DNA of 64,000 nt, from the NCBI RefSeq assembly GCF_050920415.1, contig NZ_CP169309.1; one strand, written 5' to 3'. This stretch comes from Escherichia coli (GTDB taxonomy: Bacteria; Pseudomonadota; Gammaproteobacteria; Enterobacterales; Enterobacteriaceae). A program made the position numbers and the translations under genes. Under the pieces are notes generated by a model. It searched no databases. It had not been told where the DNA came from and saw nothing but the letters and a program-made list of their open reading frames with translations. Numbering within the stretch: position 1 is the stretch's first letter; the number at the start of each line of letters is the position of its first letter. Shown here in pieces: positions 19,783-63,796 of the stretch.

Positions 19783-19941
19783 CTCAACAACTCCATAATG
19801 TTAACTTATGTGTCAATTCTACCATTTTGCGATCTGTGTTACATTTCTGTCTTATACAAAATGTATTTGTTGATTTACATCAATGTTGTGAAAATGCGGT
19901 TTGTGGATACTACAACCAACGAAACAACGGAGGGTAAGACA

Positions 19942-20181
19942 ATGAAAGGCTTAAAAAATATCGCTATCGCTGCAATGGTTGCTGGTCTGGTTGGTTGTGC
20001 TGATATGCCGAAACGTGAATGCACGGCAATTTATCAAACTGGCGGTAATGAGTATGCGGTTGCAGTCTTCGGTGTCGCGGATGTTGGTGGTCACAAAATG
20101 GCTAAGGCTGGGTATCCATTTAATTTTCAATGGGTGAGCGTTGACCACTTCAAGAAAACGGATTGCCCGGAATTGAATTAA
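19942..20181 (+). CDS. 79-aa lipoprotein, opposite strand to the tail genes (Cor/Llp-like superinfection-exclusion candidate)
   Basis: MKGLKNIAIAAMVAGLVGC lipobox; GGAGGG SD; lies inside track ORF 19798..20181. Confidence 0.65.
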   Translation: MKGLKNIAIAAMVAGLVGCADMPKRECTAIYQTGGNEYAVAVFGVADVGGHKMAKAGYPFNFQWVSVDHFKKTDCPELN

Positions 20182-20771
20182 TCATAGGCGTCGGTTTTAA
20201 TGGCGGTGATAGCGTTCCCGTGGTTAATATAGCCAGTTGGTGCATATACGCTACCCGCCTGGATGCCGTAAATTCTAGTTGTGCTTCCGTTGTAATAAGC
20301 CGCCGCATAAATGGATGCACTACCCTGTCCAACGAGCGCCCCTAACAATTGGGGGCAAATAGCATAAGAACCGGATAACGTTTGGTCTATATAAATTCCG
20401 CCGCTTGATCCTGCCGTCCCAACGGTTACAAGGTCTGTTAATATTCTTGATTCATTAGTTAGCACTAGTTCCCCGGAAGCGTTCCAAATAGCCATTCCCC
20501 ACTTCGGCAGCGATGGCGGGAAAATAGTGAAAATATACGCATACCCCGAACCAGCCCCGATTAGTAAAGTTGATGGGCTATTTCTATAAGCTAATACAGC
20601 GGCGGCGGTAGTGCTTTTTACAAATACCATCACGGGCTTCCCGGATGGCACGGCGACGGTTTGATTCGATGATGTTAATGTCACCCGTTCATATAAGCAA
20701 AGCGGCGTTGCTTCCGGTGTAACGAAAATATTCCCGTTACTTAATCTCAAATAAGCTCCGAAGGTTGCCAT
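20178..20771 (-). CDS. Hypothetical tail-associated protein (197 aa)
   Basis: Track ORF; ATGA-coupled to the upstream gene; shares the MATFG N-terminus with 20771..21082. Confidence 0.6.
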   Translation of the reverse strand: MATFGAYLRLSNGNIFVTPEATPLCLYERVTLTSSNQTVAVPSGKPVMVFVKSTTAAAVLAYRNSPSTLLIGAGSGYAYIFTIFPPSLPKWGMAIWNASGELVLTNESRILTDLVTVGTAGSSGGIYIDQTLSGSYAICPQLLGALVGQGSASIYAAAYYNGSTTRIYGIQAGSVYAPTGYINHGNAITAIKTDAYD

Positions 20772-21082
20772 TAAGCCACCTCCGCAAATATAACAATTTC
20801 ACACTGTGACGCGGGCCATATATTAGCGCCTACCGTATCCCCTGCCGAGGAAATGGAAACAGTACCACCCGAAATAGTGATCTTTCTGCGCGTCGTTGAC
20901 GTTGTGCCATAATCAAGCGTCATCCCATAAGATAATTTGCATCCGGTCGGCACTGTAAAGGTATATGTGCCGGATACCTGCCCGGATGATAAGGAAATAT
21001 AACCAACCACAACGGAAGGTTTAATTCCATAGTTATTAGCATTGCCGCTGGCGTCCCAGGTCGCTACGCCGAAAGTAGCCAT
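20771..21082 (-). CDS. Hypothetical tail-associated protein (103 aa)
   Basis: Track ORF; GGAGGTG SD; follows the J-like gene. Confidence 0.6.
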   Translation of the reverse strand: MATFGVATWDASGNANNYGIKPSVVVGYISLSSGQVSGTYTFTVPTGCKLSYGMTLDYGTTSTTRRKITISGGTVSISSAGDTVGANIWPASQCEIVIFAEVA

Positions 21083-21108
21083 AATTACACCTCCTTAATA
21101 AAAAACTG

Positions 21109-21125
21109 AGGCCGAACAAGTCGGC
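21109..21125 (-). terminator. Intrinsic terminator hairpin after the J-like gene
   Basis: Minus strand GGCCGActtgtTCGGCC followed by TCAGTTTTTT. Confidence 0.6.
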
Positions 21126-21134
21126 CCCTTAATT

Positions 21135-24100
21135 CTACCATGATCCGGTAATTCGCCCAATCTGGACGCGCAAAACCCCGTTACCGTCTTTTACCGAAAT
21201 AGTGGTATTAGTTAATTTCATCGCGCCCTCACCACTCACCGCGCCGTAGTTTTCGAATGTCCCGCCTTTATCCAGTTTCCATCCGGTACTGCCGGAAACA
21301 TAGTTATTTGACTGGATGTAAGAACCTATTTTCGCGTTGGTGATTGAGGCGTCTTTTATAAATGCTTCGCGAACATACATAGCGCCGTTTTCAACATAAA
21401 ATGGTGTCGTATATGTGCCGTTGGCGGCTGTCATTAATACGAAGCGGTCAACAAGAAAAATACATTGTGATTGCGTATTTGCGCCATCACCAGTTACCCC
21501 AAGCGATATTCCTGACGCGTATTTCATACCGTTGTTATCAGTAGCGATCTTGAGACTCCAAGTTGCCGACATATCACCATTAATATTGGTAATTGCTGTT
21601 TTGTTTTCCTCAATAAGCACTGATTGCCCATTAATTGATGCGGTTACTTCGCTAATTTGCTGCGCGGTTGCTTTTTCAAGCGTAACCATTGCTTGTTCAA
21701 GGTTTGTGACCTTCCCTTGAATATCATCACTTATTTTTGCTTCAAGCTCTGATAATGCTTTTGCTGTTGCCTCTTTTTCCGTTGCGACAACTTCATCTAT
21801 ACGCGTGATCTCTGCTTTTGATTGTTTCAACTGAGCGGAAAGTGTGCGTCTTGATGTTGTTTGAGCTACGGAATTATTAAGAAGCGCAATGGAAACGTTT
21901 TGCAAGCGGGCGCGAGTTTGTGTTAGTTCGCTATCCTGTTCCGAAAGCTCGACACCTATTTCGTCAATACGACTTTCATGAACCCCTAACCCCTCTTCGT
22001 TATTCTGGACGCGATTAATTAGATCTGATGTGGTATCCTTCAGATCGGTAACATCCCCTTTAAGTGTGCTCGTGTCACTAATCAACCCTTGAAATTGCTC
22101 GCTTTCCATGACTTCTTTCGTCACGAAATCTGTAATTTCGTCGAAGTCCTCCGTAGGCTTCCCGGATGCCTCAATAAAATCTGACACACCGAACGCGTTG
22201 CGGGTGCGAATGTACACATAATACATGTGGCCTGTGCTCATGCCGCCGAACGTCCATTGATAACCACGTCCGGTATACTGCGCTGACGTGGTTATGGTTG
22301 CCGGATCCGTAATCCTGTTTTCTCCGGCGTAATAAAATTCATATGCCGTATCAGTGGTGAGTGTTGTTTTGCTTATCGGGTAGACAGTAGCCTGAAATAC
22401 ACCAGGCACCCAATTTACACCGACAGGCGCGGATGGCGCTCCAATCACCAGATCGACGATGCTTTCTGCACCCTTCATGCCAGTGTCATTTCTGCCGCGA
22501 ACACCTAACGTGTATGAACCAGCATCAATGCCATAAAAATCATAACTGTATTTCGTGGTTTCATAGCTTTTAACCACCGCACCATCTGCATTGTATATGC
22601 GGATCTCGAATGTCATGCGATGAGTGGTAGTCTGTGTCTCCCACGTTGCGCGGCATTGAACTGTTTCCGATCCAATGTTTACTACCTTCAGATTTTCGAT
22701 GTTCGGCACACGGAAGTGATTAAGCGTGTCGCTGTTGATTTCGAAGATTGCGCCTTCATCGACTACGGCTTGTTTGTTAGGGTCGTGCTGCGCGGCTTCG
22801 ATAGTGTATACGCTGTTATTTTGTGTTTCTGCTACGCTGGTGATCCTACACAAAACTGGTTTTGCTGCGTTAGTTGATACAGCAAAAACAGTGCCATTTC
22901 GAATCCATGTTGGGGCCGCAGCAAGGGTGATATTGTTTCCGTTAACTCCGGTGATCTGGTGTTTTTTAAATTTGCCATCGCTATCAAGAAGGCTTATTGT
23001 GTCGCCAGCGGTCACATATTCAGAATCAACCTTATCTACAGTGATCACACGTCCATTGTTAGAGACAATACGACCGCCTAAGCGAGCGCCAGCACGGTTA
23101 TTGTCGAGTATCTCGATGATATCACCTGGCGTAAAGTGAATCGCGTCACGGGCCATTTTAAACGTGAATTTTGAAGGCTCGCGCTTCGCTGTTTCTATCA
23201 GCCATTTACCCGCCCGGTGCGCTTGCCCGCGTGATGTACACCCGAAAGCCTCCAGCGTGGTTTCGTTGTAGCCGTCACGGGCGATTAGTTCATCATCTGC
23301 GACATACTCTTTTGATTGTTCCCAGCCGTTTTCCGGATCAGTCCATGACACAATTACCGCGTTGTAGCATTCTGATCGCGCGATACTTGAACGGGTAAAT
23401 GCACCATCCACGACGTTTGCGTTAGTGATGGTTGCGATTGGGTCTTGTGGTGCATCAATCATTATAGTAAGGCGCTGACCATCCCATAACGCTATACCAC
23501 GGAACATCCCGGCGATGTTGTCCAGTAGGTCGCGGGCGCTCATTTGCTCTGTGATGTACGCGTTTAGCGTGACGCGCGGCTCTAAGCCACCATAGCCATC
23601 ATCAACCAACTGATCGCAGTATTGAGAGAGCGTATACAAAGCACCATCATCAACATCGATATAACCAGCCTGTCGAGCAAGGCCAAAACGCTCGTTTTTA
23701 ACCAAGTAGCGGAATATCCACGCCGGGTTATTTGTGTATGCCTTTTTAAGTCCGCCAAGCCATAAACCGGAATAATTTCGTTTTTCCGGGTCGTAGTTAT
23801 CCGGTACATCGACAATCAGCCCACGCAGATGATAAGTGCGTGTAGGTGTATCGGAGTACTGGTCATGGTCAATTACCGCGCCAGCTACAGCAGTGTGAGG
23901 ATAAGACAAGTTATCGTCGATGATTTCGCTATAACTGTTCCAGCGGGTATCGTTCTGTAATAGGTCGCTTACACTATCAGCCGTCACGCGGCGCACGCGA
24001 ATATCAAATGGCTTTTCATCCGGCGCATCAATGATATGAGACTCCAGATATTCACCGCTAATCTTACCCGGACCGATTTGTACGGCCTTAACCGCCGACC

Positions 24101-24554: not shown

Positions 24555-24566
24555 AATAACCCCCTA

Positions 24567-26511: not shown

Positions 26512-26617
26512 ACCGTGAATGCCAAAATGGATTGATAGCGTGATTTACAATATGTATATTTTACTCAAACGAACGGTAGTAAACAAAATGGCACAGTTTG
26601 GAACAGGATAGGACACT

Positions 26618-26776
26618 ATGAGATCCGCAAAATACGCAGAAAAAGTTTTCGTTGAAGTGAAAGGCGACATGAAAAAATTTATGGATGTTCTTATCAAAGA
26701 GATGGGAAAACCGTTCCATATAGCCGAACGTCAGTATTACGCTTGCAAGGCTAATAGCTACAACAGATACGCATGA
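26618..26776 (+). CDS. Moron small ORF (52 aa)
   Basis: My translation: MRSAKYAEKVFVEVKGDMKKFMDVLIKEMGKPFHIAERQYYACKANSYNRYA; AGGATAGG SD; ordinary composition, unlike the junk-like antisense track ORFs. Confidence 0.45.
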   Translation: MRSAKYAEKVFVEVKGDMKKFMDVLIKEMGKPFHIAERQYYACKANSYNRYA

Positions 26777-26798
26777 CAATAAACACAAAGGTAACACT

Positions 26799-26891
26799 AT
26801 GCAAAAATATCGTCTTGATGTGTGGATGGCTGGAAATAAAGATTGGGAAGGTTTCGGATTATTTGACAGCCGCGAACTGGCTAACGACTAA
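26799..26891 (+). CDS. Moron small ORF (30 aa), possibly the 5' piece of a longer ORF broken by in-frame TAA codons
   Basis: MQKYRLDVWMAGNKDWEGFGLFDSRELAND; same frame continues to 26934 and into 26964..27152. Confidence 0.3.
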   Translation: MQKYRLDVWMAGNKDWEGFGLFDSRELAND

Positions 26892-26972
26892 GGGGAAAAA
26901 CTTGTTAACTTCTTTGGACGGGCCAGGGAGTTTTAAGTAACCCCGGTACAGATAGAAAATAAGGTGGAAGAG

Positions 26973-27152
26973 ATGAAATACGATATTGATAACGACGCTT
27001 GCTTTAAACAAAACTTTGCGGATTCTATGGATCAGTCTTGCCCTGAAATACACGCACACGGTTTCCCGGCAGATAATCCAGACATGAAACGCGAATACGA
27101 AAAAGCGGCGAAAGATTTCTGCATCGACAATCTGGGCGCATTCGATAGATAA
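26973..27152 (+). CDS. Moron small ORF (59 aa, acidic, Cys-containing)
   Basis: Track ORF 26964..27152; ATG at 26973 preceded by AAGGTGG. Confidence 0.5.
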   Translation: MKYDIDNDACFKQNFADSMDQSCPEIHAHGFPADNPDMKREYEKAAKDFCIDNLGAFDR

Positions 27153-27161
27153 GGCGGCAAT

Positions 27162-27410
27162 ATGGCGAGGCGAAAACATAGCGATTATATGTACACGCTG
27201 AAGCAGGCCGCCCGCCTTATCGGTTATCATGAACACGAATTTATTGATTTGCTGATTGAGCGCGGGATTTTATACCAGGTCTGTTTAACGCTGTACCCGA
27301 AAGCGAAATACTTGCAGGAAAAGTTATTCATCATCATGACGGATGAAAACCAGGTTAATCACTCATTCGTCACTGCCAAAGGCGTTAATTATCTGCGCGA
27401 TAACTTATAG
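27162..27410 (+). CDS. KilA-C/ANT-domain-like protein (82 aa)
   Basis: YTLKQAARLIG...YPKAKYLQEKLF...VTAKGVNYLRDNL resembles the phage antirepressor KilAC domain pattern; AAGGCGG SD. Confidence 0.5.
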   Translation: MARRKHSDYMYTLKQAARLIGYHEHEFIDLLIERGILYQVCLTLYPKAKYLQEKLFIIMTDENQVNHSFVTAKGVNYLRDNL

Positions 27411-27420
27411 GTGACAGATT

Positions 27421-27537
27421 ATGAAAATAGAAGTTTTGGCGCTAATAGTAATGGGATTGATAGTATTTGGTGTTCATGCTGTAGATCTGGACTGGAAAAC
27501 GATAGCAGAAAATATAGCGTTAATGGAAATGGAATAA
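27421..27537 (+). CDS. 38-aa small membrane/secreted peptide
   Basis: MKIEVLALIVMGLIVFGVHAVDLDWKTIAENIALMEME; AGGTGA SD; last gene of the plus-strand cassette. Confidence 0.4.
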   Translation: MKIEVLALIVMGLIVFGVHAVDLDWKTIAENIALMEME

Positions 27538-27543
27538 TAATAA

Positions 27544-27560
27544 CCCCGCTTCGCGCGGGG
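27544..27560. terminator. Bidirectional hairpin closing the plus-strand cassette and the minus-strand gpM unit
   Basis: CCCCGCttcgcGCGGGG; the minus strand continues TTATTATTATT. Confidence 0.6.
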
Positions 27561-27566
27561 TCGTGT

Positions 27567-27752
27567 TTATACGCCATCAAGTAAAAATAAAACTTCCTTG
27601 CCTTCTCTTGATCTGCATCCTACATAACCGTCACCCATGTCATGAAGATACCAGGTCTCACCATTATCAGCTTTTACAGTAAGATCGTTGATTTCATAGT
27701 CGTCAAACAATGTAAAAGCGCCCGTGCGGTCCACTACACAAATAGCATACAT
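27567..27752 (-). CDS. Hypothetical protein (61 aa)
   Basis: Track ORF 27567..27785; start at MYAICVV preceded by GGAGGTG. Confidence 0.5.
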   Translation of the reverse strand: MYAICVVDRTGAFTLFDDYEINDLTVKADNGETWYLHDMGDGYVGCRSREGKEVLFLLDGV

Positions 27753-28119: not shown

Positions 28120-28308
28120 AAAACCCCCATAAGTTACATTTTGTATATATCTTTACGCGCTTCTACGCGAAAAATAAGATCTTCATCACAATGATTATAG
28201 CTAGTTTACAAAATGGCTTCACATAGCACACAACAAGATGTATATAAAAAGCAAGAAGAAAAGCAGTACCAACGAAGGAGGCCCAAAAATGAAACGCTAT
28301 GAGTAGTA

Positions 28309-28443
28309 ATGCTAAACAACGCATTCGAACAAGTGGAAATAGCAATCGTTAAGGGTTTCGACGACGCATTTAAATACGGTCAATTCATGATTAATGCAAA
28401 AGAAGATGAATACCGTGATTTCTTCCTGAAGGCTCTTAATTAA
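28309..28443 (+). CDS. Moron small ORF (44 aa; possible antitoxin-like partner)
   Basis: MLNNAFEQVEIAIVKGFDDAFKYGQFMINAKEDEYRDFFLKALN; preceded by a 5-codon mini-ORF (28289..28306) with AAGGAGG SD and a TAGTAATG stop-start arrangement. Confidence 0.35.
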   Translation: MLNNAFEQVEIAIVKGFDDAFKYGQFMINAKEDEYRDFFLKALN

Positions 28444-28462
28444 GAATAATCGGGGGTGAGCT

Positions 28463-28717
28463 ATGAAACTGGTAGCGATTGACAAAAACCTGAAAGTACA
28501 GAAAAACGCACAGGACCGGATTATCAAGAAAGGTAAGGAACTGCTTAAAGCATTTTTGAAGAAAGAGGCGCGCCCCAAAAAGTTACGCGATGGTTATGGC
28601 TTTAAATTCGATATCAATCATGACTGGCGGCTGTTCAGCGAAGACCTCAAAGTCTGGTTAATAATCGATCACCTGGAATATAACAGGCACTGCGGGGTTA
28701 AAGGGGCGCATAAGTGA
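28463..28717 (+). CDS. Moron ORF (84 aa), weak RelE/ParE-like C-terminal pattern
   Basis: Track ORF; GGGGGTGAG SD; KLRDGYGFKFDINHDWRLFSEDLKVWLIIDHLEYNRH loosely resembles the RelE/ParE toxin core. Confidence 0.5.
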   Translation: MKLVAIDKNLKVQKNAQDRIIKKGKELLKAFLKKEARPKKLRDGYGFKFDINHDWRLFSEDLKVWLIIDHLEYNRHCGVKGAHK

Positions 28718-31385: not shown

Positions 31386-31536
31386 GATTTAACCTCATGC
31401 AAAATGTGATCTATGCATCTATTTTATACAAAATGTCTTTATTTTAACGATACCGTTTTGTATAGATGATGTAGGGAAAGATAGAAGAGATGCAGGAAGG
31501 ACGGATGTCCCGGAGGAAGTGAAAGAGGATAAGGAA

Positions 31537-31620: not shown

Positions 31621-31687
31621 ACAATATGCGTGTATAACTAAGTTAAAGGAAGCATTTAGCAAATCAGAATAATTACAGGGGTTGATT

Positions 31688-32101
31688 ATGAAACGGTTAG
31701 CAAAAATGGTACTTGCTGTGATTGCTGCACTGGCATTTAACGCGAACGCTAACGAGGCCATAAACATTAACTGTGAAGAAGTGGCAAACCATGTAGCCGC
31801 ATATCACGACATGATCAAAAAAGAACCAGCCGCACCCACAATTCTTTTTAAGGCAATTGATAAAAATTTTGAAGGGAAACCAGTTTGTGCTCGTTGGTTT
31901 AATTATGGCCTTGTAAACGAGGCTGCTGTAGGCGTAGTCTTTGAAAACAACAGCGAAATAAAAAACAGGATAGCTAACGAGTGTAAAGCAAATAAAGTTG
32001 CTTTCGCTGAAAGAATTTTTAATGAAGGCGGCGCTGGTGCAAAAAATCACGCAATTGTCGATTTAGGTAACGGTTTTATTGATATTGTTAGAATCAAATA
32101 A
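31688..32101 (+). CDS. Secreted (periplasmic) protein of unknown function, 137 aa, 4 Cys
   Basis: Track ORF 31682..32101; MKRLAKMVLAVIAALAFNANA|NEA signal peptide; AGGGG SD; opposite strand to the tail genes. Confidence 0.65.
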   Translation: MKRLAKMVLAVIAALAFNANANEAININCEEVANHVAAYHDMIKKEPAAPTILFKAIDKNFEGKPVCARWFNYGLVNEAAVGVVFENNSEIKNRIANECKANKVAFAERIFNEGGAGAKNHAIVDLGNGFIDIVRIK

Positions 32102-34736: not shown

Positions 34737-35123
34737 TTACATCCTCCTACTCTTACCGATCCATAGTCCGGCGTGCGCGGTGGCTTCGGGATCTGCCGGG
34801 ATTAGTTCGGCTGTGCAATTATGTTTGTCAATTGAACGAAGCAACGAGCAAGCTGCCTTCCATCTTTTATTAAAATCGACATAGCGGTAGGACTGGCTCG
34901 CGCCGTTCGGCCCTGTCTGTGAGGAAATGTATTTATCAGCCTGAGTTAGTCCTAACAGGCCAATGAGATAAAGCTGAATTAATGTTGCAGTGGAGGCCGG
35001 ATAATTGGCATCAAGGCATTCGTTTACGCTATTAGCCTGCTCCACCAGCAAAGATAAGATAATGTCTGGCAGGTCAATACCCTGGCTTTCAAGATATTCC
35101 CGTGCCTGTTCTGTAGTGACCAT
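34737..35123 (-). CDS. Head-tail adaptor-like protein
   Basis: Track ORF 34737..35159; start at MVTTEQAREYL with GGAGC SD; the longer start would lie inside the upstream terminator. Confidence 0.5.
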   Translation of the reverse strand: MVTTEQAREYLESQGIDLPDIILSLLVEQANSVNECLDANYPASTATLIQLYLIGLLGLTQADKYISSQTGPNGASQSYRYVDFNKRWKAACSLLRSIDKHNCTAELIPADPEATAHAGLWIGKSRRM

Positions 35124-35189: not shown

Positions 35190-36245
35190 TTAAGATTTTT
35201 TACCGTAAACGACACCGGAACGGCCTAACATGTCGCTGGTGATCTGTAAGCCTTCTGCTGACATGATGCGGAAGTTGTAGTTATCGGTAGGCATGAGGCG
35301 CGGTAGCGGAACTACACCAGTAGTCATACCGATCAGCGGGGTAATCACTGATTTCTGGCGCTGGTAAGCGATGAACTCGTTACCTTTCAGTGCGAAGGTC
35401 TGACGAATTTCACCAACCGGGATGTACGGTTTAATTACATCCAGGACGCGACCAACAACCGCACCATTAACGACGTGAGGCGCGGCAAGGTTAGCCATGA
35501 TTTCAGGGGATACCCACATAACATCGTATTTAGCTACGAAGTTGTTGCGGGCCAGAGTACCGAAAGCGCCAGTAGTAAAGAATGCGATAATTTCCTGGAA
35601 GGTCATCGTAGTGAGATCTTCATTGGTCATCTTTAACTGCTGGGTATTGCGGTGATTTTTGATACCCTGTGCTTTTTTGCCTTCAACGACGATACGGTCG
35701 CTCCCTTCAAGGTAGAAGCGAACACGTTCTTTGTTGAATTTTTTCAGTTTCAGGCGCTGGCTATCCAGAGCAAGGTCGACACCAACGGTGTTTAAACCTG
35801 CTGCGTGACGCCAGTTAACCCCGTAACCTGCCGTGAACATCGGAATCGGATCGCCATCGCTACCGTATTCAGTATGATCGAAGCCATGAGGGGCTTGACC
35901 ATCCATAGAAATGACGACTTCATCATTGATGTCACCTGCTACGCTGTACATTTTCAGTGTTTTACCGATTGGCAGTACAGTCTGCACCCCCATCAGGTCG
36001 TTTACGATCTCGATACCAATTTCTTCGGTGTTTAGTTCGATGATCTGGTTGTCAATTTCCTGCCAGAACTCACGGGCAAAACCGCCAACGGCGTTACATG
36101 CCAGCATTTCAGGGGTCATATTGGCACGGTTAGCAGCAATCATAGAATCATGCTGCTGATTAAAGATGTTACGTTGCGCCCACATTTCTTGCCAGTGACT
36201 TTGCATACGGGCGTTAGTAGCAAGGTTTTCCCTAGTAAAATACAT
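35190..36245 (-). CDS. Major capsid protein
   Basis: 351 aa; follows the scaffold and small decoration-like genes in the DUF2213/DUF2184-type head module order; a terminator follows, as is common for capsid genes. Confidence 0.75.
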   Translation of the reverse strand: MYFTRENLATNARMQSHWQEMWAQRNIFNQQHDSMIAANRANMTPEMLACNAVGGFAREFWQEIDNQIIELNTEEIGIEIVNDLMGVQTVLPIGKTLKMYSVAGDINDEVVISMDGQAPHGFDHTEYGSDGDPIPMFTAGYGVNWRHAAGLNTVGVDLALDSQRLKLKKFNKERVRFYLEGSDRIVVEGKKAQGIKNHRNTQQLKMTNEDLTTMTFQEIIAFFTTGAFGTLARNNFVAKYDVMWVSPEIMANLAAPHVVNGAVVGRVLDVIKPYIPVGEIRQTFALKGNEFIAYQRQKSVITPLIGMTTGVVPLPRLMPTDNYNFRIMSAEGLQITSDMLGRSGVVYGKKS

Positions 36246-36260
36246 TATGTATACCTCTCG

Positions 36261-43125: not shown

Positions 43126-43656
43126 TCAGCCTCGTTTAAAGCTCATAACACGCGGTACAAGCGCTTCTTTTGCTTTCGGCTTACGTTTGCCTTTCTTTGC
43201 GGGTTTTTCTTCCTTCGGCTGTTCTAATGCCTGCTCGACGACTTCAGCCGCCTGCATTGCCGCTACTTGTGCTTCGTTTGATTCAGCCAGGATAGGGAAA
43301 AATGCATCGAAGATACGGCCTACCATGTAAGCGTAAGTCTCATTCGCCGGGTGAGTTGGATCAGTGATCGCCACGACGCCAACATCACTTAAAACGTGGA
43401 ATGTAGTGTGAGCGCATTCATGTACCAGCGTTCCTAACTCATTGTCGAATACTGCGATCACGTAGAAGTTACCGCCTTTCTCACCAGTGCAAGTAAGCGT
43501 CAATCCTCCAGCCAGTTCGAAATCAGGTTCGATTGGAATTCCTGCCTTTTCGCAAAATTCATAAAACATCTCGCGGGTCGGGCAAAAGAAAACGGTTGTA
43601 TGCTCAAAGAGCGGGATCTTGAATTGAGGCAACTTAATGCCTTTAGCCTTAGCCAT
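43126..43656 (-). CDS. HExxH-motif protein (putative zinc metallopeptidase) with Lys-rich C-terminal tail
   Basis: 176 aa; LVHECAHTTFH contains HExxH; C-terminus KEEKPAKKGKRKPKAKE. Confidence 0.55.
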   Translation of the reverse strand: MAKAKGIKLPQFKIPLFEHTTVFFCPTREMFYEFCEKAGIPIEPDFELAGGLTLTCTGEKGGNFYVIAVFDNELGTLVHECAHTTFHVLSDVGVVAITDPTHPANETYAYMVGRIFDAFFPILAESNEAQVAAMQAAEVVEQALEQPKEEKPAKKGKRKPKAKEALVPRVMSFKRG

Positions 43657-43983
43657 CAGAATAATCTCCTGTCTGGTTTGCTTTTACTTCCTGTTTATAC
43701 AGCGGAAGGAATGACATAAAACACTGAAAACGGCGCTTCATCAGTACCGTTTCCAGAATTTTATAAAACTGGACCTGCTTAACATCTCTGATAAACAGAT
43801 CCGGGCGCTCGTCCTACGCATGGCAGGTGAGTGAATGGCGCTTTCTTCTACCCGGGTAGCGCCGACCTGTTAATGGGATGGATGATCCGGTATTACGTGT
43901 TTTTGACTATTCCGCCGTCGCTCGCGGGAAGGATTGCCCCGGTTATGGCTGGCTGGCGGAAACGGCGACACGTCCACGCGCTG

Positions 43984-47460: not shown

Positions 47461-47733
47461 TTAAGCCATGCGTGCGAATTCAAGCGCTTTGCATTCATAG
47501 TCTTCTTCTGCCTGTTCCACTACACGGATAATCATCTGATCGGCGTTTTCGAAGCCATAACCTTTAGCGAATTCATTAGCACCGCCTTCGTGGTCATGTT
47601 CTGCGTTCATCGCTTCCACATAGTGGAACTCAAGATTGTTAAGGTAGGGACTAGAAACGCCGTCCTCTTTTTCAATCAGATCCCAAATTGCATTGAATCG
47701 GGACTCTGTTTCTTCGTTAATCCAGCGTTTCAT
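47461..47733 (-). CDS. Hypothetical acidic protein (90 aa)
   Basis: Track ORF; GGAGGG SD; first gene after the 47734..47841 intergenic region. Confidence 0.55.
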   Translation of the reverse strand: MKRWINEETESRFNAIWDLIEKEDGVSSPYLNNLEFHYVEAMNAEHDHEGGANEFAKGYGFENADQMIIRVVEQAEEDYECKALEFARMA

Positions 47734-47815
47734 TTTTCTGCCCTCCGCATCGTTCTCTCTTCAGCTTCTTTATAACAAAATGGCACTGCCGAAACAATGC
47801 CATTTTGTAAACTTT

Positions 47816-47828
47816 GGGGGGGGGGGGG
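47816..47828. repeat. Homopolymeric G13 tract (C13 on the gene strand)
   Basis: Thirteen consecutive G counted directly; intergenic. Confidence 0.95.
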
Positions 47829-53149: not shown

Positions 53150-53270
53150 AATGCTCTCTCCTTTTCAGGTGATTTCTACGCATTTCAGCGCTGCCGGATT
53201 TTTAAAGAGCATTTCGTTTGCTTGAAGTATACAAAATGGATGCACCTGAACAAGGCAAAAAGCGCCATTA

Positions 53271-53286
53271 TGTGACCAAAATCACA
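53271..53286. promoter_or_regulatory. Perfect CRP-consensus-core palindrome TGTGA-N6-TCACA
   Basis: TGTGAccaaaaTCACA read directly; lies between two inverted copies of the 14-bp element. Confidence 0.5.
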
Positions 53287-53308
53287 CAATGACGCCATTT
53301 TGTAAACT

Positions 53309-56076: not shown

Positions 56077-56077
56077 T

Positions 56078-56563: not shown

Positions 56564-56782
56564 TTAAGCCTCAATAACACCGTAATCAAACGTGCCTAAA
56601 TACCGTTCGATACTTACAACCTCAATACCATCAATGCACCGTTTCCACACAGACACCTGGCTTTCATTTTCTCTGAAGTGCATATTAGAAAGCACTTCAT
56701 CGGCTGGATAGCCTTTCCCAGCGGCGTAGGCATCGTGACCTACGCCACCTTCTACGCAATAAAGCATGAATTCGCGTTCCAT
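56564..56782 (-). CDS. Hypothetical protein (72 aa)
   Basis: Track ORF; GGAGGAAG SD. Confidence 0.5.
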   Translation of the reverse strand: MEREFMLYCVEGGVGHDAYAAGKGYPADEVLSNMHFRENESQVSVWKRCIDGIEVVSIERYLGTFDYGVIEA

Positions 56783-56881
56783 TTTTGCTTCCTCCGCACC
56801 GTAAACCTTTTGATTTCGGATTACAAAACGGATATGCGATTACAATACATAATGTATATTCATGTGATCGGAATCACTCGG

Positions 56882-59072: not shown

Positions 59073-59088
59073 CGCTAACGCATTGATT

Positions 59089-60268: not shown

Positions 60269-60298
60269 AATGTCACCTCCGGATGTTTACATTTTGTA

Positions 60299-60589
60299 TT
60301 AATGGTAGCGGACTTTATCCAGGGGTTTTTCCCCTAAATGGCGTGGTTGCGTTGCGTGGTAGTAGCTGCCGCTTTCATTTTCCGTATACCATTTTACTGG
60401 TCCTTTGCGACGTTCTTTAATGCTATTTGGTTTGCATCTTTCCTCGTTTGCAAATCGAATAGCTTTATCCACATTGTCTGTTTTATTGATTGCAGGTGAT
60501 GATTTTCTTTCGTTTTCTCTTTTTATCCTTCTGCGTTCCCTGGCATTCAGTTTACTGTCACATTTGCCATACATAATTGTAACGCTCAT
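60299..60589 (-). CDS. Arg-rich 96-aa protein, N-like antiterminator candidate
   Basis: First gene after the PL-like promoter and nutL; NARERRRIKRENERK arginine-rich motif near the N-terminus; GGAG SD. Confidence 0.45.
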   Translation of the reverse strand: MSVTIMYGKCDSKLNARERRRIKRENERKSSPAINKTDNVDKAIRFANEERCKPNSIKERRKGPVKWYTENESGSYYHATQPRHLGEKPLDKVRYH

Positions 60590-60644
60590 AATCTGATCTC
60601 CGTATATCCTTGATGAAACTTAATAAAAATCATCTTCGTTAATT

Positions 60645-60682
60645 GCCGCACTTCCAGCGGCTGACCAGATTGTTAATGAGCG
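60645..60682 (-). promoter_or_regulatory. nutL-like site (boxA plus boxB hairpin)
   Basis: Minus strand CGCTCATTAACAATCTGGTCAGCCGCTGGAAGTGCGGC; boxA resembles TGCTCTTTAACAA; 5-bp GCCGC/GCGGC stem; shares GCTCnTTAAnAATCTGGT with the plus-strand site at 61901. Confidence 0.6.
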
Positions 60683-60936
60683 GCTTAACATCTTTCAACT
60701 AATCCCGCAATCATCGCCGTTCCCGGCGTGACCTTGCTCACTCCAAGCAAGCTGACTCGTCGCCTTGCGTGCGGTTTCGTGGGGGATGTAACGCTTTAAA
60801 CACCCCATGCGCCTTGTTATCAGTGCCGCTTTCGGTCCCCCATCGGGGAGTTACTCCACGGTTGACAAGGTGTTAAGCCTGATTTTTAAAGTGCCAGGAA
60901 GTTGCTTTTGTTACCTGCGCCCTTCCTTTGACTCGC

Positions 60937-60965
60937 AATATACGCCCCGTAAAACACCGAGTCAA
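60937..60965 (-). promoter_or_regulatory. PL-like sigma70 promoter
   Basis: Minus strand TTGACT, 17 nt spacer, TATATT; two copies of the 14-bp element immediately upstream (60967..60980, 60989..61002). Confidence 0.65.
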
Positions 60966-61060
60966 TCCATTTTGTATACTTTTTTAAAACATTTTGTATG
61001 CTATTGATATTTAAGCAATAAATAACGCTTCCTGTTTACGTTTTGGTGTTTTCCGGGCAA

Positions 61061-61082: not shown

Positions 61083-61088
61083 TAATGT

Positions 61089-61736: not shown

Positions 61737-61795
61737 GTCGCTACCCTATAACCTCAAAAAGTTTGATACAAGTCACAAAATGTATTTTTCAAGTC

Positions 61796-61823
61796 TTGAC
61801 CTAAAAACGCCATTCTGTAAACT
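61796..61823 (+). promoter_or_regulatory. PR-like promoter
   Basis: TTGACC, 16 nt spacer, TAAACT; the -10 lies inside the element copy CCATTCTGTAAACT. Confidence 0.55.
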
Positions 61824-61900
61824 TGCAGACAAGGTAGGGCCATAGTTGCAAAGACGCAAGAAAAAAGATAACGGAATAGCACAAAAAGGCGCATACCTTA

Positions 61901-61934
61901 TGCTCTTTAATAATCTGGTGTCGCTGCGAAGCGA
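61901..61934 (+). promoter_or_regulatory. nutR-like site (boxA plus boxB hairpin)
   Basis: TGCTCTTTAATAA (12/13 to rrn boxA TGCTCTTTAACAA), 7 nt, then TCGCTgcgaAGCGA hairpin with a GNRA loop. Confidence 0.65.
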
Positions 61935-62041
61935 AAAACAAATATCACGCAACGGCGGGATCTGTTAAGCGGTCAATCACTGCTACCTAATACTAATGGG
62001 ATACCCGCCCGCGCGTTCACTCTAACATAGGAGAAAACACA

Positions 62042-62296
62042 ATGAGTATGCACATGATGAATGAAGTATGGAAATTAAAACTTAACAGCCCTATTCAAAA
62101 ACTTGTCTTAATGGCGATGGCTGAAAAGGCAGATAACAAAGGACGGGTACATGTATCACGCAAAGAAGTAGCCGCAATGTGTGAACTTCCTGTTTATACG
62201 GTACATGATGCCTTCGCCGCGTTAATGGATAAAGGATTTGTTTGTCGTCTTGATGCATTCAGTGATGTCTATGTAGTGATGTTGCCGGAGGAATGA
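62042..62296 (+). CDS. Small winged-helix/HTH DNA-binding protein (84 aa)
   Basis: Track ORF; GGAGAA SD; first plus-strand gene after nutR; SRKEVAAMCELPVYTVHDAFAALMDKGF. Confidence 0.5.
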   Translation: MSMHMMNEVWKLKLNSPIQKLVLMAMAEKADNKGRVHVSRKEVAAMCELPVYTVHDAFAALMDKGFVCRLDAFSDVYVVMLPEE

Positions 62297-62299
62297 TCC

Positions 62300-63400
62300 A
62301 TGAAGTGGTTTAAGCATGATAGCGATGCGAACCGCGATGAAAAGCTCCAAAACGTTTTGCTTGATTATGGTCTGGAAGGATACGGGCTTTACTGGTATTG
62401 CATCGAGTTAATAGCTTATGAAGTAGATCAACATAATCTGACATTCGAACTAAAACACGATGCGAGAATTATTGCCCGTAACGTCGGATCAACTCCGAAA
62501 CGTGTAGAAGAAATGATGAGATACTTCATCGAAGTTGGCTTGTTCGATTGCTCGCATGGCGTTGTAAGATGCCTGTCGTTAGCAAAAAGACTTGATCAAT
62601 CAATGGCTTCATCAAAAAGCGAATTTAGGGAAGCAATTAAAAGGCTAAACGTCAAAAAAAATAAAAAGTTAGATAATCCTTTAGTGGAAGTAAATAATTC
62701 ACCAGATACAGAAAAAGAAAAAGAAAAACCATGGCACAACCATGATGCAGCCATGGCACAACCATGTCATAGCCATGGATTAGAAGTAGAAGTAGAAGAA
62801 GAAATAGAAAAAGATATATACACTTCGTGTATTAGCGAAAATGGACAAAAAACGGTCAATCAGGACGGTGTAAGCGAAGCTGCCTTGCGTTGCCTGGCTT
62901 TCTACAACGAAAAGGCAGGATGCAAGTGTCGTGATACTAAGCCATTCATCGAACTACTGACAGAAACAAAAACACGTAAGGCATATACGGAGGAAGAGAT
63001 CACATTAGTAATTGAGTGGGCTTTAACCCAATGGCGTAGCCGTGGTGGAGTACCTAAGCCTATCAACATTTGCCGGGTAACTAAGTTTGATGGGTATCTG
63101 GCTGATGCTGAACAATGGCGCAAGTTATCAGCTACTGTAAACGCTGCCGACGTGGTGGGAGAATTTAACAGCACGTTTGACGGCCTGTTACCACCTGCCG
63201 AACTGGATCGGGATCTTGAACGCAAGATCTATGCGTTCACTGACTACCTGAAAGACAAAAGTATTAACGGCTTTGTCGCCTACTTCGAAACGTTCAAAAA
63301 CACGGCTTCAGATTTTTACTTCGGCAATGGCTTCACTGCGACACTTGATTTTCTGCTTAAACCAAAAACGCTACGTGATACACGCGCTGGCGTTCTTTGA
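62300..63400 (+). CDS. Replication initiation protein (DUF4373-like N-terminus plus conserved phage C-terminal domain)
   Basis: 366 aa; MKWFKHDSDANRDEKLQ...GYGLYWYCIELI is typical of DUF4373; C-terminal half resembles the phage replication conserved C-terminus. Confidence 0.6.
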   Translation: MKWFKHDSDANRDEKLQNVLLDYGLEGYGLYWYCIELIAYEVDQHNLTFELKHDARIIARNVGSTPKRVEEMMRYFIEVGLFDCSHGVVRCLSLAKRLDQSMASSKSEFREAIKRLNVKKNKKLDNPLVEVNNSPDTEKEKEKPWHNHDAAMAQPCHSHGLEVEVEEEIEKDIYTSCISENGQKTVNQDGVSEAALRCLAFYNEKAGCKCRDTKPFIELLTETKTRKAYTEEEITLVIEWALTQWRSRGGVPKPINICRVTKFDGYLADAEQWRKLSATVNAADVVGEFNSTFDGLLPPAELDRDLERKIYAFTDYLKDKSINGFVAYFETFKNTASDFYFGNGFTATLDFLLKPKTLRDTRAGVL

Positions 63401-63533
63401 CCAACCACGATCCGCAAAAATCCAAAATTACCCATAAAACAACCTCACCAGCGAGCTAAATAGCATATGCTGCTACACTTGCTTACCTTTTTGCGATTAG
63501 CTCGTTATAGAGCGTTACAGAGAGGATTTTAAA

Positions 63534-63635
63534 ATGGACGGTAAACACGTTTTCGCCCTGGCCTTTGCCATCGCTGCGGCAATCGCTGTTAACGTCGCTT
63601 TGTTCGGCGGTTTGTACCTTCTCGTTAATCCATAA
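63534..63635 (+). CDS. 33-aa single-TM peptide
   Basis: My translation: MDGKHVFALAFAIAAAIAVNVALFGGLYLLVNP; AGAGG SD. Confidence 0.35.
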   Translation: MDGKHVFALAFAIAAAIAVNVALFGGLYLLVNP

Positions 63636-63796
63636 CCTACCTACCAGTCTGTAAATCGAAAATTAGCCACCTGATAGCGCCTCTGGCGCAAAAAAGACAC
63701 TGCACCCTTACAAGTGGGTTACGCGGTGGAATTTTGCGTTGTAGCGCGTTTTACGGAAAATAAATATACATTCTGTAAACATGAGGAAGTAACATT

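Follow-up and report, generated by a model that had tools for sequence, protein, structure and literature searches.

A short element recurs in the intergenic regions of a prophage within a 64,000-nucleotide stretch of Escherichia coli DNA (the window), which raises the question of what it does there. The prophage is a member of the mEpimmI group (mEp021 relatives), whose repressor operators are unmapped in the published family paper. The original prediction offered two readings, a phage-specific promoter class or dispersed repressor operators, and each found support in part. We conclude, with a probability of about 0.72, that the lambda-type CI repressor of the prophage, which is homologous to Rep021 of phage mEp021, uses the element as its operator at dispersed intergenic promoter regions. 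Whichever Cro protein a phage carries presumably binds the element too.

An over-represented 17-bp pseudo-dyad in non-coding prophage DNA

The 14-mer CCATTTTGTAWACT has five exact matches in the window, compared to 0.00 in 100 shuffles: CCATTTTGTAAACT at 28203-28216 (-), 47800-47813 (+) and 53295-53308 (+), and CCATTTTGTATACT at 53226-53239 (-) and 60967-60980 (+). These coordinates and a one-mismatch copy at the PR-like promoter (61810-61823) are as originally predicted. The strong enrichment was confirmed in a computed scan with CCATTTTGTAWAC at up to two mismatches, which gave 27 matches against 4.55 expected, a number reached by 0 of 100 shuffles. The word CATTTTGTA occurs 10 times (1.03 expected), and the top over-represented 8-mer of the prophage is CATTTTGT (18 copies against 2.85 under a Markov model). 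The latter has 0 copies in the 17.4 kb host flank, in line with the claim that host DNA is free of the motif.

The 14-mer appears asymmetric because most copies pair a strong arm with a weak one (nnWTCC). In full, a site spans 17 bp as a pseudo-dyad, GTWTAC-N5-GTAWAC, whose centre is rich in A and T (ATTTT), and its 17-mer forms include GTTTACATTTTGTATTA and CAATCCATTTTGTATAC. A pure 6-5-6 arm scan found 15 sites against 6.1 expected and missed most class-1 copies. The dyad symmetry is only partial and the footprint asymmetric, and a simple symmetric operator whose centre is uncontacted would not account for the conserved CC and T-tract; both observations sit uneasily with the operator model.

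About 22 credible copies occupy 11-12 loci, which together extend across at least 44 kb and reach into both the late (tail) region and the replication operon (Table 1). On a gene map curated by hand from ORF lists, in which a 127-aa ORF (19798..20181, +) overlapping one motif locus was treated as presumed spurious, all 22 listed sites fall in the non-coding 11.1% of the prophage, as had been claimed, and so do 17 of the 24 prophage 13-mer matches (2.7 expected). Neighbouring sites are 25, 25, 25, 24, 25 and 22 bp apart, centre to centre. With respect to transcription, 10 sites are co-oriented and 9 opposed.

The variants listed earlier are real, with three corrections. The last copy, given as 63772-63785, lies at 63768-63781; a looser palindrome at 43756-43772 (CCAGAATTTTATAAAACTGG) differs in sequence and was rejected as a member; and two copies described as flanking the -35 of the PL-like promoter are both upstream of it, with centres at -41 and -63. 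The variant at 26546-26556 is better given as the dyad 26543-26559, and copies at 60938-60954, 28229-28245 and, weakly, about 26519-26535 were newly found.

Table 1. Operators, promoters and associated features, ordered by position in the window
Feature	Position	Strand	Basis or remark
Dyad AAATAC ATTTT GTATAA, 5' of 790-aa tail-fibre gene	19852..19868	.	sequence
Weak site CAATCC ATTTT GGCATT, about -40 of island-C promoter	26519..26535	-	24 bp from 26543..26559 dyad
Island-C promoter, TTGATA-17-TATATT	26532..26560	+	promoter scan 10/12, best in 19-33 kb
Dyad ATTTAC aatat GTATAT over island-C -10 (-16)	26543..26559	.	dyad scan
Operator, CTGTGC CATTT TGTTTA region (CCATTTTGTTTACT)	26579..26595	-	about 70 nt 5' of gpL start
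Full dyad AGTTAC ATTTT GTATAT	28132..28148	.	just 5' of gpM ribosome-binding site
Operator GAAGCC ATTTT GTAAAC	28204..28220	-	sequence; -16 of gpM-directed -10, -41 of island-B promoter
Island-B promoter, TTCACA-17-TATATA	28218..28246	+	layout identical to P_gp17
Weak operator CACAAC AAGAT GTATAT over island-B -10	28229..28245	+	25 bp from 28204..28220 site
Operator AAAGAC ATTTT GTATAA, 38 nt 5' of tape-measure gene start	31424..31440	-	sequence
Operator GATACC GTTTT GTATAG, faces opposite-strand island gene 31682..32101	31449..31465	+	sequence; 25 bp from partner 31424..31440
Operator AGTGCC ATTTT GTTATA, upstream of gene 47461..47733	47771..47787	-	sequence, family conservation
Operator AATGCC ATTTT GTAAAC	47796..47812	+	25 bp from 47771..47787 partner
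Third early promoter (putative), TTGTTC-16-TATACT	53226..53253	-	family alignment
Operator GCATCC ATTTT GTATAC, overlaps -10 of nutR2 promoter	53227..53243	-	sequence, family alignment
Intrinsic terminator, 16-bp stem, t4 of mEp021 map (TERM_4)	53261..53296	-	terminator scan, mEp021 annotation
Auxiliary operator GACGCC ATTTT GTAAAC	53291..53307	+	directly after cytosine methyltransferase stop codon
Operator ATATCC GTTTT GTAATC, upstream of gene 56564..56782	56819..56835	-	sequence
Full dyad, minus strand ATATAC ATTAT GTATTG	56843..56859	.	24 bp from 56819..56835 site
Full dyad GTTTAC ATTTT GTATTA	60285..60301	.	between gp17 stop codon and next gene's ribosome-binding site
P_gp17 early promoter, TTGACT-17-TATATT	60937..60965	-	promoter scan; reads toward nutR1 and gp17
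Operator over -10/spacer of P_gp17, ATATAC gcccc GTAAAA, centre 60946 (-16)	60938..60954	.	dyad scan 10/12
Operator CAATCC ATTTT GTATAC, centre 60971 (-41 of P_gp17)	60963..60979	+	sequence
Third, weak operator TAAAAC ATTTT GTATGC, centre 60993 (-63 of P_gp17)	60985..61001	+	sequence
cI-type immunity repressor gene, 215 aa	61089..61736	-	Pfam HTH_3 5e-13, Peptidase_S24 4e-19
PRM-like promoter (putative), TTGTAT-17-TAGGGT	61743..61771	-	sequence; family-wide conservation
Second OR operator, + strand AGTCAC AAAAT GTATTT, centre 61779	61771..61787	-	sequence
P_cro early promoter, TTGACC-16-TAAACT	61796..61823	+	promoter scan 9/12, sequence
Operator at P_cro, AACGCC ATTCT GTAAAC, centre 61814 (-16 of P_cro)	61806..61822	+	sequence
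Full dyad ATATAC ATTCT GTAAAC	63764..63780	.	immediately 5' of ribosome-binding site of gene from 63796

A lambda-like layout around cI

The motif is the sole word common to both early promoter regions flanking cI, and the cI product is its presumed binder. The protein matches lambda repressor (3bdn) over its full length (E 3e-19) and is 91-100% identical to the repressors of 44 IMG/VR contigs. The immunity region has a lambda-like arrangement: one site covers the -10 of each of P_cro and P_gp17 (at -16), further sites lie 22-25 bp upstream of these, and a site at -43 of a probably leaderless PRM-like promoter occupies the place from which lambda CI activates PRM.

The P_cro operator is kept in 45 loci and varies only in its central triplet (TTT, TCT or TAT). 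A boxA (GCTCTTTAA) follows about 70 nt downstream of P_cro, and the nut site has been described (PMC11893012). The second OR element (CCATTTTGTGACTTG), which is the one at -43 of the PRM-like promoter, is retained in the divergent L203 lineage. The two recognisable OR sites are 35 bp apart, unlike the 24-25 bp found elsewhere, and this spacing is not what the operator model would lead one to expect. The A of the cI ATG (61736) is 7 nt past the PRM-like -10, suggesting that cI mRNA from this promoter would be leaderless; the relative L048 has the same cI geometry (TATAAT-6-ATG).

P_gp17, which precedes the N-like gene gp17, is the top promoter-like match in 46-64 kb (10/12) and is invariant across the family. 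The site over its -10 was found via the dyad scan and not via the 14-mer, and in the family its arms are TTTTAC, TATCAC or TTATAC ... GTATAT. The -41 operator, 25 bp away, overlaps the -35 by 3 bp and is invariant in 44 loci, whereas the -63 site is degenerate (ATATTTTATAT) in most relatives. The strong site at -41 of P_gp17 and of the island promoters is in an activating position in lambda, an observation that goes against the operator model.

Dispersed sites as probable promoter-operator modules

Unlike in lambda, the same putative operator recurs at about ten more intergenic loci. A strong arm followed by T reads as a -10 hexamer (TAWACT or TATATT), so that many of these copies may be promoter-operator modules. 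In the window, the strong arm GTAWAC is followed by T in 6 of 8 cases, giving TAnnnT, and the best sigma-70-like matches of the region coincide with motif sites. At least six copies lie within credible sigma-70 promoters, at P_cro, P_gp17, the nutR2 promoter and two moron-island promoters.

One module would be a third early promoter preceding nutR2. Its -35 is conserved, while the distal spacer is free to vary; the left arm of its operator is GTATCC in most relatives. The nutR2 boxA (about 53202-53210; nutR2 position from PMC11893012) is 15 nt downstream. The terminator t4 sits between this operator and the auxiliary site, which are 64 bp apart, and L203 keeps a site pair, 57 bp apart, at the syntenic position.

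Two copies of the P_gp17-type module (CAAAATGG-N-[-35]-N17-TATATW) would drive opposite-strand accessory islands among the tail genes. The island-B promoter precedes a ParE-like toxin cassette (ParE_like Pfam 5.5e-11), and the island-C promoter serves the + strand genes 26618..27584, including an ANT/KilAC-domain protein (ANT Pfam 1.8e-7). The P_gp17, island-C and island-B promoters align without gaps across the core, and the island-C promoter looks like a copy of P_gp17; the left half of its weak upstream site is identical to that of the P_gp17 -41 site. Further copies would place -10-like sites in front of the genes for the tape measure, gpM, gpL and the tail fibre, directed toward them. The gpM-directed -10 is TAAACT, followed by an invariant TATAAT, the site 5' of gpL reads GCCATTTTGTTAACT in relatives, and a degenerate copy, CCATTTTGCGATCT (19822-19835), lies 34 bp from the tail-fibre dyad.

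Several of these features would also be expected of a promoter class working without a repressor, in which TAWACT is the -10 and CCATTTTG an upstream extension read by host RNA polymerase or by a phage activator replacing the -35. The T after six of the eight strong arms fits such a class, as do the TAWACT -10 with a -35 16 bp upstream at P_cro and the nutR2 promoter, the co-oriented copies 20-85 nt 5' of gene starts, and a mean best -35 match of 3.05 compared to 2.43 for background TAnnnT hexamers. However, a credible -35 is present at only about six sites, the TG lies at -14/-13, off the extended -10 position, and the T at -7 is conserved across orthologues no better than the flanks (minor-allele frequency 0.107). 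At 56819-56835, CCGTTTTGTA is conserved but the -10-like hexamer is not (TAAGCC in many relatives). Moreover, about half of the copies oppose local transcription, the site over the P_gp17 -10 retains the arms, not CATTTTG, and six related prophage lineages have this dyad type at OR and OL alone. We therefore regard this explanation as distinctly improbable. The promoter reading in the original prediction is thus half right: the use of GTAWAC plus T as a -10 hexamer stands for the copies within credible sigma-70 promoters, but a -35 is missing at most copies. The antisense promoters proposed for some copies are unneeded, since an upstream (-41, -63) or auxiliary operator accounts for each of them.

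In genomes with unrelated opposite-strand cassettes upstream of the tape-measure gene, similarity starts exactly at the 31424-31465 pair, and motif sites flank all three tail-region accessory islands. Both findings could mean that the copies serve module exchange as conserved joints, where cassettes meet at short targets for recombination and regulation is not the primary role, likened to the promoter-stem-loop cassettes of T4-type phages. This is very unlikely, since many copies are away from variable junctions (OR, P_gp17, after gp17, nutR2), positions relative to the -10 and -35 hexamers are too regular, and related repressors have this very sequence as their OR/OL dyad. Recombination at these places can be a by-product of the conservation of regulatory sequence.

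The pair at 47771-47812, upstream of a gene with a TGnTATAAA extended -10 (47461..47733), folds into a 15-bp hairpin (-20.2 kcal/mol, z-score -5.2), and several copies are just 5' of ribosome-binding sites, as might be expected of RNA hairpins acting in processing, termination or translational control. Five other pairs, however, fold no better than shuffled controls (z-scores -1.1 to +1.0), some copies stand alone or form direct repeats, and both orientations relative to transcription occur, which makes a role as RNA extremely unlikely.

The dyad after gp17 is kept in 44 loci with only GTTTAC, GTATAC or ATTTAC as left arm, and its L203 counterpart is TTATAC gtttt GTATAC. The centre of the dyad at 56843..56859 is ATTTT in most relatives. 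The gene from 63796 belongs to the rightward replication operon, and relatives have related copies before operon genes.

The motif follows the CI recognition helix

The motif is family-specific: each of 15 mEpimmI genomes has between 15 and 24 copies, a density of 3.4-5.2 per 10 kb. In 817 kb of tail-gene loci of other phages the density is 0.17 per 10 kb, and CATTTTGTA has zero occurrences. Conservation of orthologous sites persists where the flanks and the adjacent cassettes diverge. Most substitutions affect central positions that are symmetric: A to G at position 1, T to C at position 5, and changes of the middle T's.

The 6-5-6 dyad type is shared by six further prophage lineages whose CI is related, and there it is confined to OR and OL. 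Lineages from Tatumella (L209), Enterobacter (L208) and Serratia (L210), with the recognition helix I/VTKGAVSHW, have three dyads at OR and a pair at OL with a spacing of 25 bp (GTATAC-ATTTC-GTATCT, ATATAC-ATTTT-GTATTG and similar). With the helix VSKGAVGHW (L046-048) the dyads are GTATAC-N5-GTATAA or GTAGAT, and with ITQGGLGHW (L206/207) they are TAATAC-N5-GTATTG. The half-site thus changes with the recognition helix. Gene content otherwise differs between them, L209 being lambdoid with CII/O/N and L206 and L210 of a primase-helicase type. In L203-205, which have mEpimmI synteny, CI is 55% identical to that of the window and its recognition helix is identical. These lineages keep the CCATTTTGTAWAC motif at syntenic places despite an unrelated Cro; the Cro-like proteins of the window and L203 gave no alignment.

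These comparisons bear on whether the binder is instead another phage protein, such as the Cro-like protein alone, a late or middle activator or an Xis-like HTH protein. The most conserved part of the footprint, CATTTTGTAW, is asymmetric and about 10 bp long, as a monomer or a different fold could give; copies precede late (tail) genes, which is unexpected for a CI operator, and the strong -41 sites resemble class II activator sites. Nevertheless, such a binder is unlikely, as the motif is identical where the Cro-like proteins are dissimilar, its type tracks the CI helix across lineages of otherwise different gene content, and the sole motif common to both early promoters must serve immunity. 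CI remains our preferred binder, and the finding that plasmid-expressed Rep021 blocks 6/6 tested mEpimmI phages (PMC11893012) fits a motif common to all of them.

Comparison with known operator systems

Three lines of evidence support the operator reading in the original prediction: where the sites lie at both early promoters, their lambda-like spacing and the comparison with related repressors. Lambda operators (OL1-3, OR1-3), bound by CI and Cro, have a centre-to-centre spacing of 23-24 bp. As in lambda, the sites are 17-bp pseudo-dyads (6-5-6) with a strong and a weak half, cover part of the -10 or -35 of the two early promoters on either side of cI, occur in tandem (here 22-25 bp apart) and include one near -42 of the probably leaderless promoter from which the repressor itself is expressed; this repressor is homologous to lambda CI and has the HTH+S24 architecture. 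The operator sequence differs (GTWTAC-ATTTT-GTAWAC), and OR has two recognisable sites 35 bp apart instead of three. The main difference is that about 22 sites are found at 11-12 loci, whereas lambda has two clusters.

Dispersal itself has precedents. The P1 C1 repressor has 22 'widely dispersed' operators (PMC8546580). As proposed here, a single immunity repressor acts on many promoters through operators scattered over the genome, most of which overlap promoters of separate operons; P1 operators, however, are asymmetric (ATTGCTCTAATAAATTT), and P1 is a plasmid prophage without an N/Q antitermination cascade. C1 is not known to be related to lambda CI or to cleave itself as S24 proteins do. 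The analogy originally drawn was to the stoperators of cluster A mycobacteriophages (L5 gp71 type), more than 20 repressor sites in short intergenic regions genome-wide (PMC9283540). Stoperators are also dispersed in addition to an early-promoter operator, but they are asymmetric, 13 bp long and recognised by a monomer that has two DNA-binding domains, and their orientation follows transcription, as is required for blocking elongation. The analogy fails, since the sites here are pseudo-symmetric 17-mers, the repressor is of the lambda HTH+S24 type and orientation is independent of transcription.

The dispersed sites appear to resemble the CIRs of Streptomyces phage phiC31, inverted repeats of about 17 bp at many genome positions that are bound by the c repressor, the immunity repressor of that phage. 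Many CIRs adjoin a conserved early promoter class, which in phiC31 is distinct and of non-sigma-70 consensus; repressor and host are unrelated to those here.

In the lysogen, CI dimers would occupy the sites, cooperatively where these are paired, and this occupancy would keep a distributed set of promoters under immunity control.

A repeated intergenic element shared by the mEpimmI phage family

The prophage extends from about 17.4 kb of the window to its right end and belongs to the mEpimmI group, being 87-90% identical to the Escherichia phages mEp010, mEp021, mEp554 and MagusPhagus. According to their description in 2025 (PMC11893012), mEpimmI phages are non-lambdoid, Nus-dependent coliphages with one common immunity. 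Almost all prophage genes lie on the minus strand, in the order N-like gp17, recombination, ninG, Q, lysis and head/tail from a promoter just 3' of the repressor gene cI, while the cro-like gene and the replication genes are transcribed rightward. Host DNA forms the left flank, and the prophage end (17410) abuts the start of an MppA-like solute-binding gene (15699-17345, minus strand; SBP_bac_5, 2e-94), which fits mppA, a less common attachment site of these phages (PMC11893012). A search of the GTDB species genomes with the repressor gave no match, and in a search with the N-like protein for heteroimmune relatives all 43 of 43 matches carried the same repressor.

The original prediction held that a 14-bp element recurs between the genes of this prophage and is lacking from the host DNA. 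Exact 14-mers were indeed found where predicted (five matches versus none expected), and the enrichment was confirmed with CATTTTGTA, present in 10 copies versus 1.0 expected. When k-mers were scanned without bias, CATTTTGT(A) ranked first in over-representation among the 8-, 9- and 10-mers of the prophage, and in agreement with the prediction it was absent from the host flank. The 13-mer with at most two mismatches gave 27 matches versus 4.6 expected. The 22 accepted sites are spread over 11-12 loci between 19.8 and 63.8 kb of the window, and all are intergenic as claimed: on an ORF map curated by hand, only 11.1% of the prophage is non-coding, and this fraction contains every one of them.

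Several candidates were left out of this count. The 13-mer matches in the tail-fibre gene (17872, 18309 and 18758), in cI (61433 and 61722) and at 35120 were regarded as chance matches or start-codon contexts. A dyad at 36238-36254 (AAATAC attat GTATAC) was omitted because it is found in only two of 15 family genomes; it overlaps the ribosome-binding site and start codon of a major capsid-like gene. The palindrome at 43756-43772, listed earlier as a looser member, differs in sequence from the element. The 20-bp palindrome CCAGAATTTTATAAAACTGG at this place (43756-43775), intergenic and upstream of gene 43126..43656, is unrelated to it.

Each of 15 family genomes carries 15-24 copies of the element, and syntenic copies are present in mEp021 itself. 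In control tail-gene loci of other phages, 817 kb in total, there were 0.17 copies per 10 kb and not a single copy of CATTTTGTA. The element is a property of the phage family.

The element as a 17-bp pseudo-dyad

The copies within the window were aligned with orthologous copies in 44-72 related loci. Constraint was maximal on C-A-T-T-T-T-G-T-A-W, giving an asymmetric conservation footprint. Substitutions cluster centrally (position 1 A to G, position 5 T to C, middle T to A or C), amid which the flanking ..AC and GTA.. remain invariant, and the changes at positions 1 and 5 are symmetric equivalents. In the common 14-mer the right arm is strong (GTAWAC) and the left arm weak (nnWTCC), whereas some sites are full dyads (see the table). 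These features are best summarised by a 17-bp pseudo-dyad, GTWTAC-N5-GTAWAC, of partial symmetry.

A purely symmetric operator model was considered as well. Scanning for both arms with at least 10 of 12 matches returned 15 sites versus 6.1 expected, and WTAC-N5-GTAW occurs eight times in the prophage versus about 0.7 expected from the rate in control phages (0.15 per 10 kb), with none in the host flank. However, most copies have only one good arm, and the symmetric model, although enriched, misses most of the 14-mers; we therefore speak of a pseudo-dyad whose halves differ in strength, one strong and one weak. Judging from the incomplete symmetry and from the conservation of the CC and the T-tract, recognition may be more asymmetric than that of lambda or depend on DNA shape.

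Sites of host factors were also compared. The TyrR box has the consensus TGTAAA-N6-TTTACA, the GalR/LacI family TGTAAAC-GTTTACA and LexA CTG-N10-CAG. For TyrR, the GalR/LacI family, OmpR and LexA the order or the spacing of the arms does not match the element; these candidates were set aside as improbable, also in view of the lack of copies in the host flank.

Sites of the element and associated predicted promoters in the window
Feature	Position	Sequence	Remarks
Site	19818-19868		before tail-fibre gene
Three sites	26519-26595		before gpL
Island-C promoter	26532-26560	TTGATA-17-TATATT	best promoter-like sequence in 19-33 kb; island encodes ANT-domain protein
Three sites	28132-28245		before gpM
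Full dyad	28132-28148	AGTTAC ATTTT GTATAT
ParE-like toxin island promoter	28218-28246		layout same as P_gp17
Pair	31424-31465		before tape-measure gene
Pair	47771-47812
Pair	53227-53307		around terminator t4
Pair	56819-56859
Full dyad	56843-56859	ATATAC ATTTT GTATTG	as read in most relatives
Site, full dyad	60285-60301	GTTTAC ATTTT GTATTA	3' of gp17
P_gp17	60965-60937 (-)	TTGACT-17-TATATT	toward nutR1 and gp17
Site from dyad scan	60938-60954		centre 60946, -16; directly over P_gp17 -10
Site	61771-61787		centre 43 bp upstream of cI start codon
P_cro	61796-61823	TTGACC-16-TAAACT	site centre 61814, -16
Site, full dyad	63764-63780	ATATAC ATTCT GTAAAC	replication operon

Putative operators at the early promoters

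The 215-aa repressor has Pfam HTH_3 and Peptidase_S24 domains and matches the lambda repressor (PDB 3bdn) with an E-value of 3.3e-19 over residues 15-208, as a full-length CI homologue. The element is the only word common to both early promoter regions, and the putative sites overlap core promoter elements of the divergent early promoters on either side of cI, P_cro and P_gp17. The latter is the strongest promoter-like sequence in the right-hand 18 kb. Both copies noticed originally lie upstream of it, at -41 and -63; the site over its -10 has kept its arms in all relatives and has a G+C-rich centre. In front of cI, TTGTAT-17-TAGGGT-6-ATG suggests a leaderless, PRM-like promoter, and lambda CI activates PRM from the operator position that corresponds to 61771-61787 relative to this promoter. 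The centres of neighbouring sites are 25, 25, 25, 24, 25 and 22 bp apart. Lambda operators are spaced by 23-24 bp, and the similar spacing here of 22-25 bp, about 2.3 helical turns, would permit cooperative dimer pairs.

The core of P_gp17, from its -35 to around +1, is enclosed by an 8-bp inverted repeat, TTGACTCG ... CGAGTCAA (60931-60965). Conservation of this repeat extends through the family, some members having the form CGAATCAA, and the operator model does not account for it. Between P_gp17 and nutR1 the window (60590-60930) and other family genomes carry a conserved insert. Two relatives, g047979 and g063525, are without about 190 aligned columns in this interval, so that boxA is close to the promoter there.

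Co-variation with the recognition helix of related repressors

Relatives of the repressor were collected by protein search and their loci were examined for dyads; this comparison is the most informative step of the analysis. The Tatumella locus L209 is a classical lambdoid with CII, O, DnaB and N. In this locus, in L208 (Enterobacter) and in L210 (Serratia), three dyads are located in the cI-cro spacer (for example GTATAC ATTTC GTATCT and ATATAC ATTTT GTGTCT) and two, 25 bp apart, 3' of cI (for example ATATAC ATTTT GTATTG). L208 and L210 each have one stray match; otherwise dyads were found only at these operator regions, OR and OL. The OL spacing is 25 bp in L206, L208, L209 and L210, and 23 bp in L046 and L048. 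The loci L046-048 have arms GTATAC/GTAGAT and a leaderless cI (TATAAT-6-ATG), and the TATACT of their cro promoter lies inside an operator arm.

Among these relatives the operator sequence co-varies with the recognition helix. Repressors with the helix I/VTKGAVSHW or VSKGAVGHW have GTATAC-type arms, and those of L206/207, with ITQGGLGHW, have TAATAC/GTATTG. The divergent lineage L203-205 has the mEpimmI gene order and a CI of 55% identity in which the recognition helix is unchanged, and no similarity was detectable between its Cro and that of the window. In these loci CCATTTTGTAWAC is retained at syntenic positions, among them those of the pair on either side of the nutR2 terminator. The shared architecture, together with the same helix, dissimilar Cro and same motif of L203-205, indicates that the element tracks the DNA-binding domain of CI, and not Cro or the remaining genome. 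Across this whole clade of enterobacterial CI repressors, CATTTTGTA forms the conserved core of the predicted operator. L203-205 (Logan contigs SRR23253299_32704 and others) further encode a longer N-like protein (115 aa) and an unrelated cro with an HTH_3 domain; their matches in the phage collection were limited to about 250 bp in the immunity region.

From the positions of the sites and the comparison with related repressors we infer binding by CI. The element is most likely the operator of a lambda-type immunity repressor, dispersed as promoter-operator modules.

Predicted promoter-operator modules among the dispersed sites

It had been suggested that the element represents a phage-specific class of promoters. 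Part of this holds, as some dispersed sites are predicted promoter-operator modules in which GTAWAC plus T forms the -10 hexamer. As a general description it fits the data poorly. A -35 with at least 4/6 matches is located 16-18 bp upstream in only 4 of 19 copies and the two type-A promoters, against a background rate of 9.9%, and a credible -35 is present in only about six copies. The final T occurs in 9 of 19 copies and, although invariant at four sites, is not generally conserved; as the T at -7 of a promoter it shows no special conservation. Moreover, at one well-conserved site many relatives lack a usable -10, half of the copies are oriented against transcription, and the -16 site of P_gp17 retains its arms without the T-tract. 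Late-activator boxes of the P1 Lpa or P2 Ogr type were rejected since the -16 position does not fit; a literature search for such boxes gave no usable consensus.

In the module at 53226-53253, the predicted nutR2 promoter, the -35 (cTTGTT), the putative operator and the -10 are conserved, whereas the distal spacer varies freely, which points to a construction like that of P_cro, and the boxA of nutR2 follows 15 nt downstream. A third nut site has been reported in mEpimmI phages (PMC11893012). The arrangement offers an explanation for the three nut sites, each of which would stand behind its own operator-controlled promoter.

The tail operon is broken by three islands on the opposite strand, each ending in a bidirectional terminator. 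The promoter of one of them, island C, aligns with P_gp17 over the core without internal gaps, including the CAAAATGG-N-[-35] junction and the ..AC-N5-GTATAT putative operator over the -10, and looks like a copy of the P_gp17 promoter-operator module. This island (26618-27584, plus strand) holds five small genes between gpL and gpM, among them one for an 82-aa ANT/KilAC-domain protein (27162..27410). If this antirepressor-like gene is under immunity control, positive feedback upon induction would be expected. A second opposite-strand cassette (28298-28717, plus strand) lies between the tape-measure gene and gpM, with a ParE-like toxin gene (28463..28717; Pfam 5.5e-11) preceded by a 44-aa ORF; compared with 13 relatives, a 1-bp deletion near 28300 in the window removes their upstream start. 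On the 5' side of the tape-measure gene, genomes with unrelated cassettes can be aligned exactly from the site pair onwards, which assigns the pair to the backbone and not to the cargo.

The inverted pairs could also act at the RNA level, as hairpins or processing sites, and the pair 47771-47812, by far the strongest, does form a perfect 15-bp hairpin together with the sequence separating its two sites (-20.2 kcal/mol, z-score -5.2). However, the other five of the six pairs fold no better than shuffled sequence, making such roles unlikely. The hairpin lies between the post-Q small-gene block and gene 47461..47733. A run of 13 G (47814-47826; C13 on the coding strand) adjoins the site 47796-47812, where relatives carry a short mixed sequence; this run may be prone to slippage or may stem from an error of assembly.

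Comparison with known dispersed operators

The original prediction also drew a parallel to the stoperators of cluster A mycobacteriophages, which are asymmetric 13-bp sites bound in an orientation-dependent manner by a monomeric two-domain repressor to block elongating RNA polymerase (PMC9283540). The parallel is apt in that the prophage has many intergenic sites genome-wide, 22 in the small non-coding fraction. It breaks down for the asymmetry, the monomeric repressor and the orientation dependence: the prophage repressor is lambda CI-like with an S24 domain, the sites include full dyads, and on the hand-curated gene map the strong arm points along local transcription at 10 sites and against it at 9. 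Phage P1, with 22 dispersed operators under one repressor and the 17-bp asymmetric consensus ATTGCTCTAATAAATTT (PMC8546580), is the best-fitting functional parallel, although its C1 repressor and operator are unrelated to those of the prophage, where the consensus differs and the repressor is of the lambda CI type. A lambda-type CI is normally limited to OL and OR. In contrast, the prophage sites are not confined to clusters beside cI. The motif strings were absent from the literature searched, and repressor operators were not mapped in PMC11893012; the 2023 Arch Virol work on mEp021 antitermination might include such mapping.

A wider proposal, possible but in our judgement rather doubtful, is that the mEpimmI CI is a genome-wide regulator working by means of portable promoter-operator cassettes, so that immunity, accessory genes and tail-restart promoters would form one regulon. 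Copies of the early module (operator at -41, -35, operator at -16 over TATATW) would have been placed among the tail genes, serving there as fixed 'sockets' for the expression of interchangeable opposite-strand cargo such as the ParE-type toxin cassette or the ANT-domain antirepressor-like gene, and a third operator-controlled early promoter would account for the unusual third nut site. Through strong -41 sites CI may activate some promoters in the lysogen, like lambda CI at PRM, and weak -16 sites would allow repression at high CI.

For the mEpimmI phages, a new and common group of gut coliphages known only since 2025, the analysis proposes a specific operator sequence together with the positions of about 22 sites, and the operator reading can be tested directly with existing mEp021 strains and plasmids. 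Dispersed control is known in P1 and in cluster A mycobacteriophages, with unrelated repressors. Our data suggest that here a lambda-type CI controls promoters genome-wide, including those of accessory islands among the tail genes. If true, this would allow the evolution of a dispersed immunity regulon from a lambda-like switch to be followed by direct comparison, as close relatives of the repressor keep the classical two-cluster layout.
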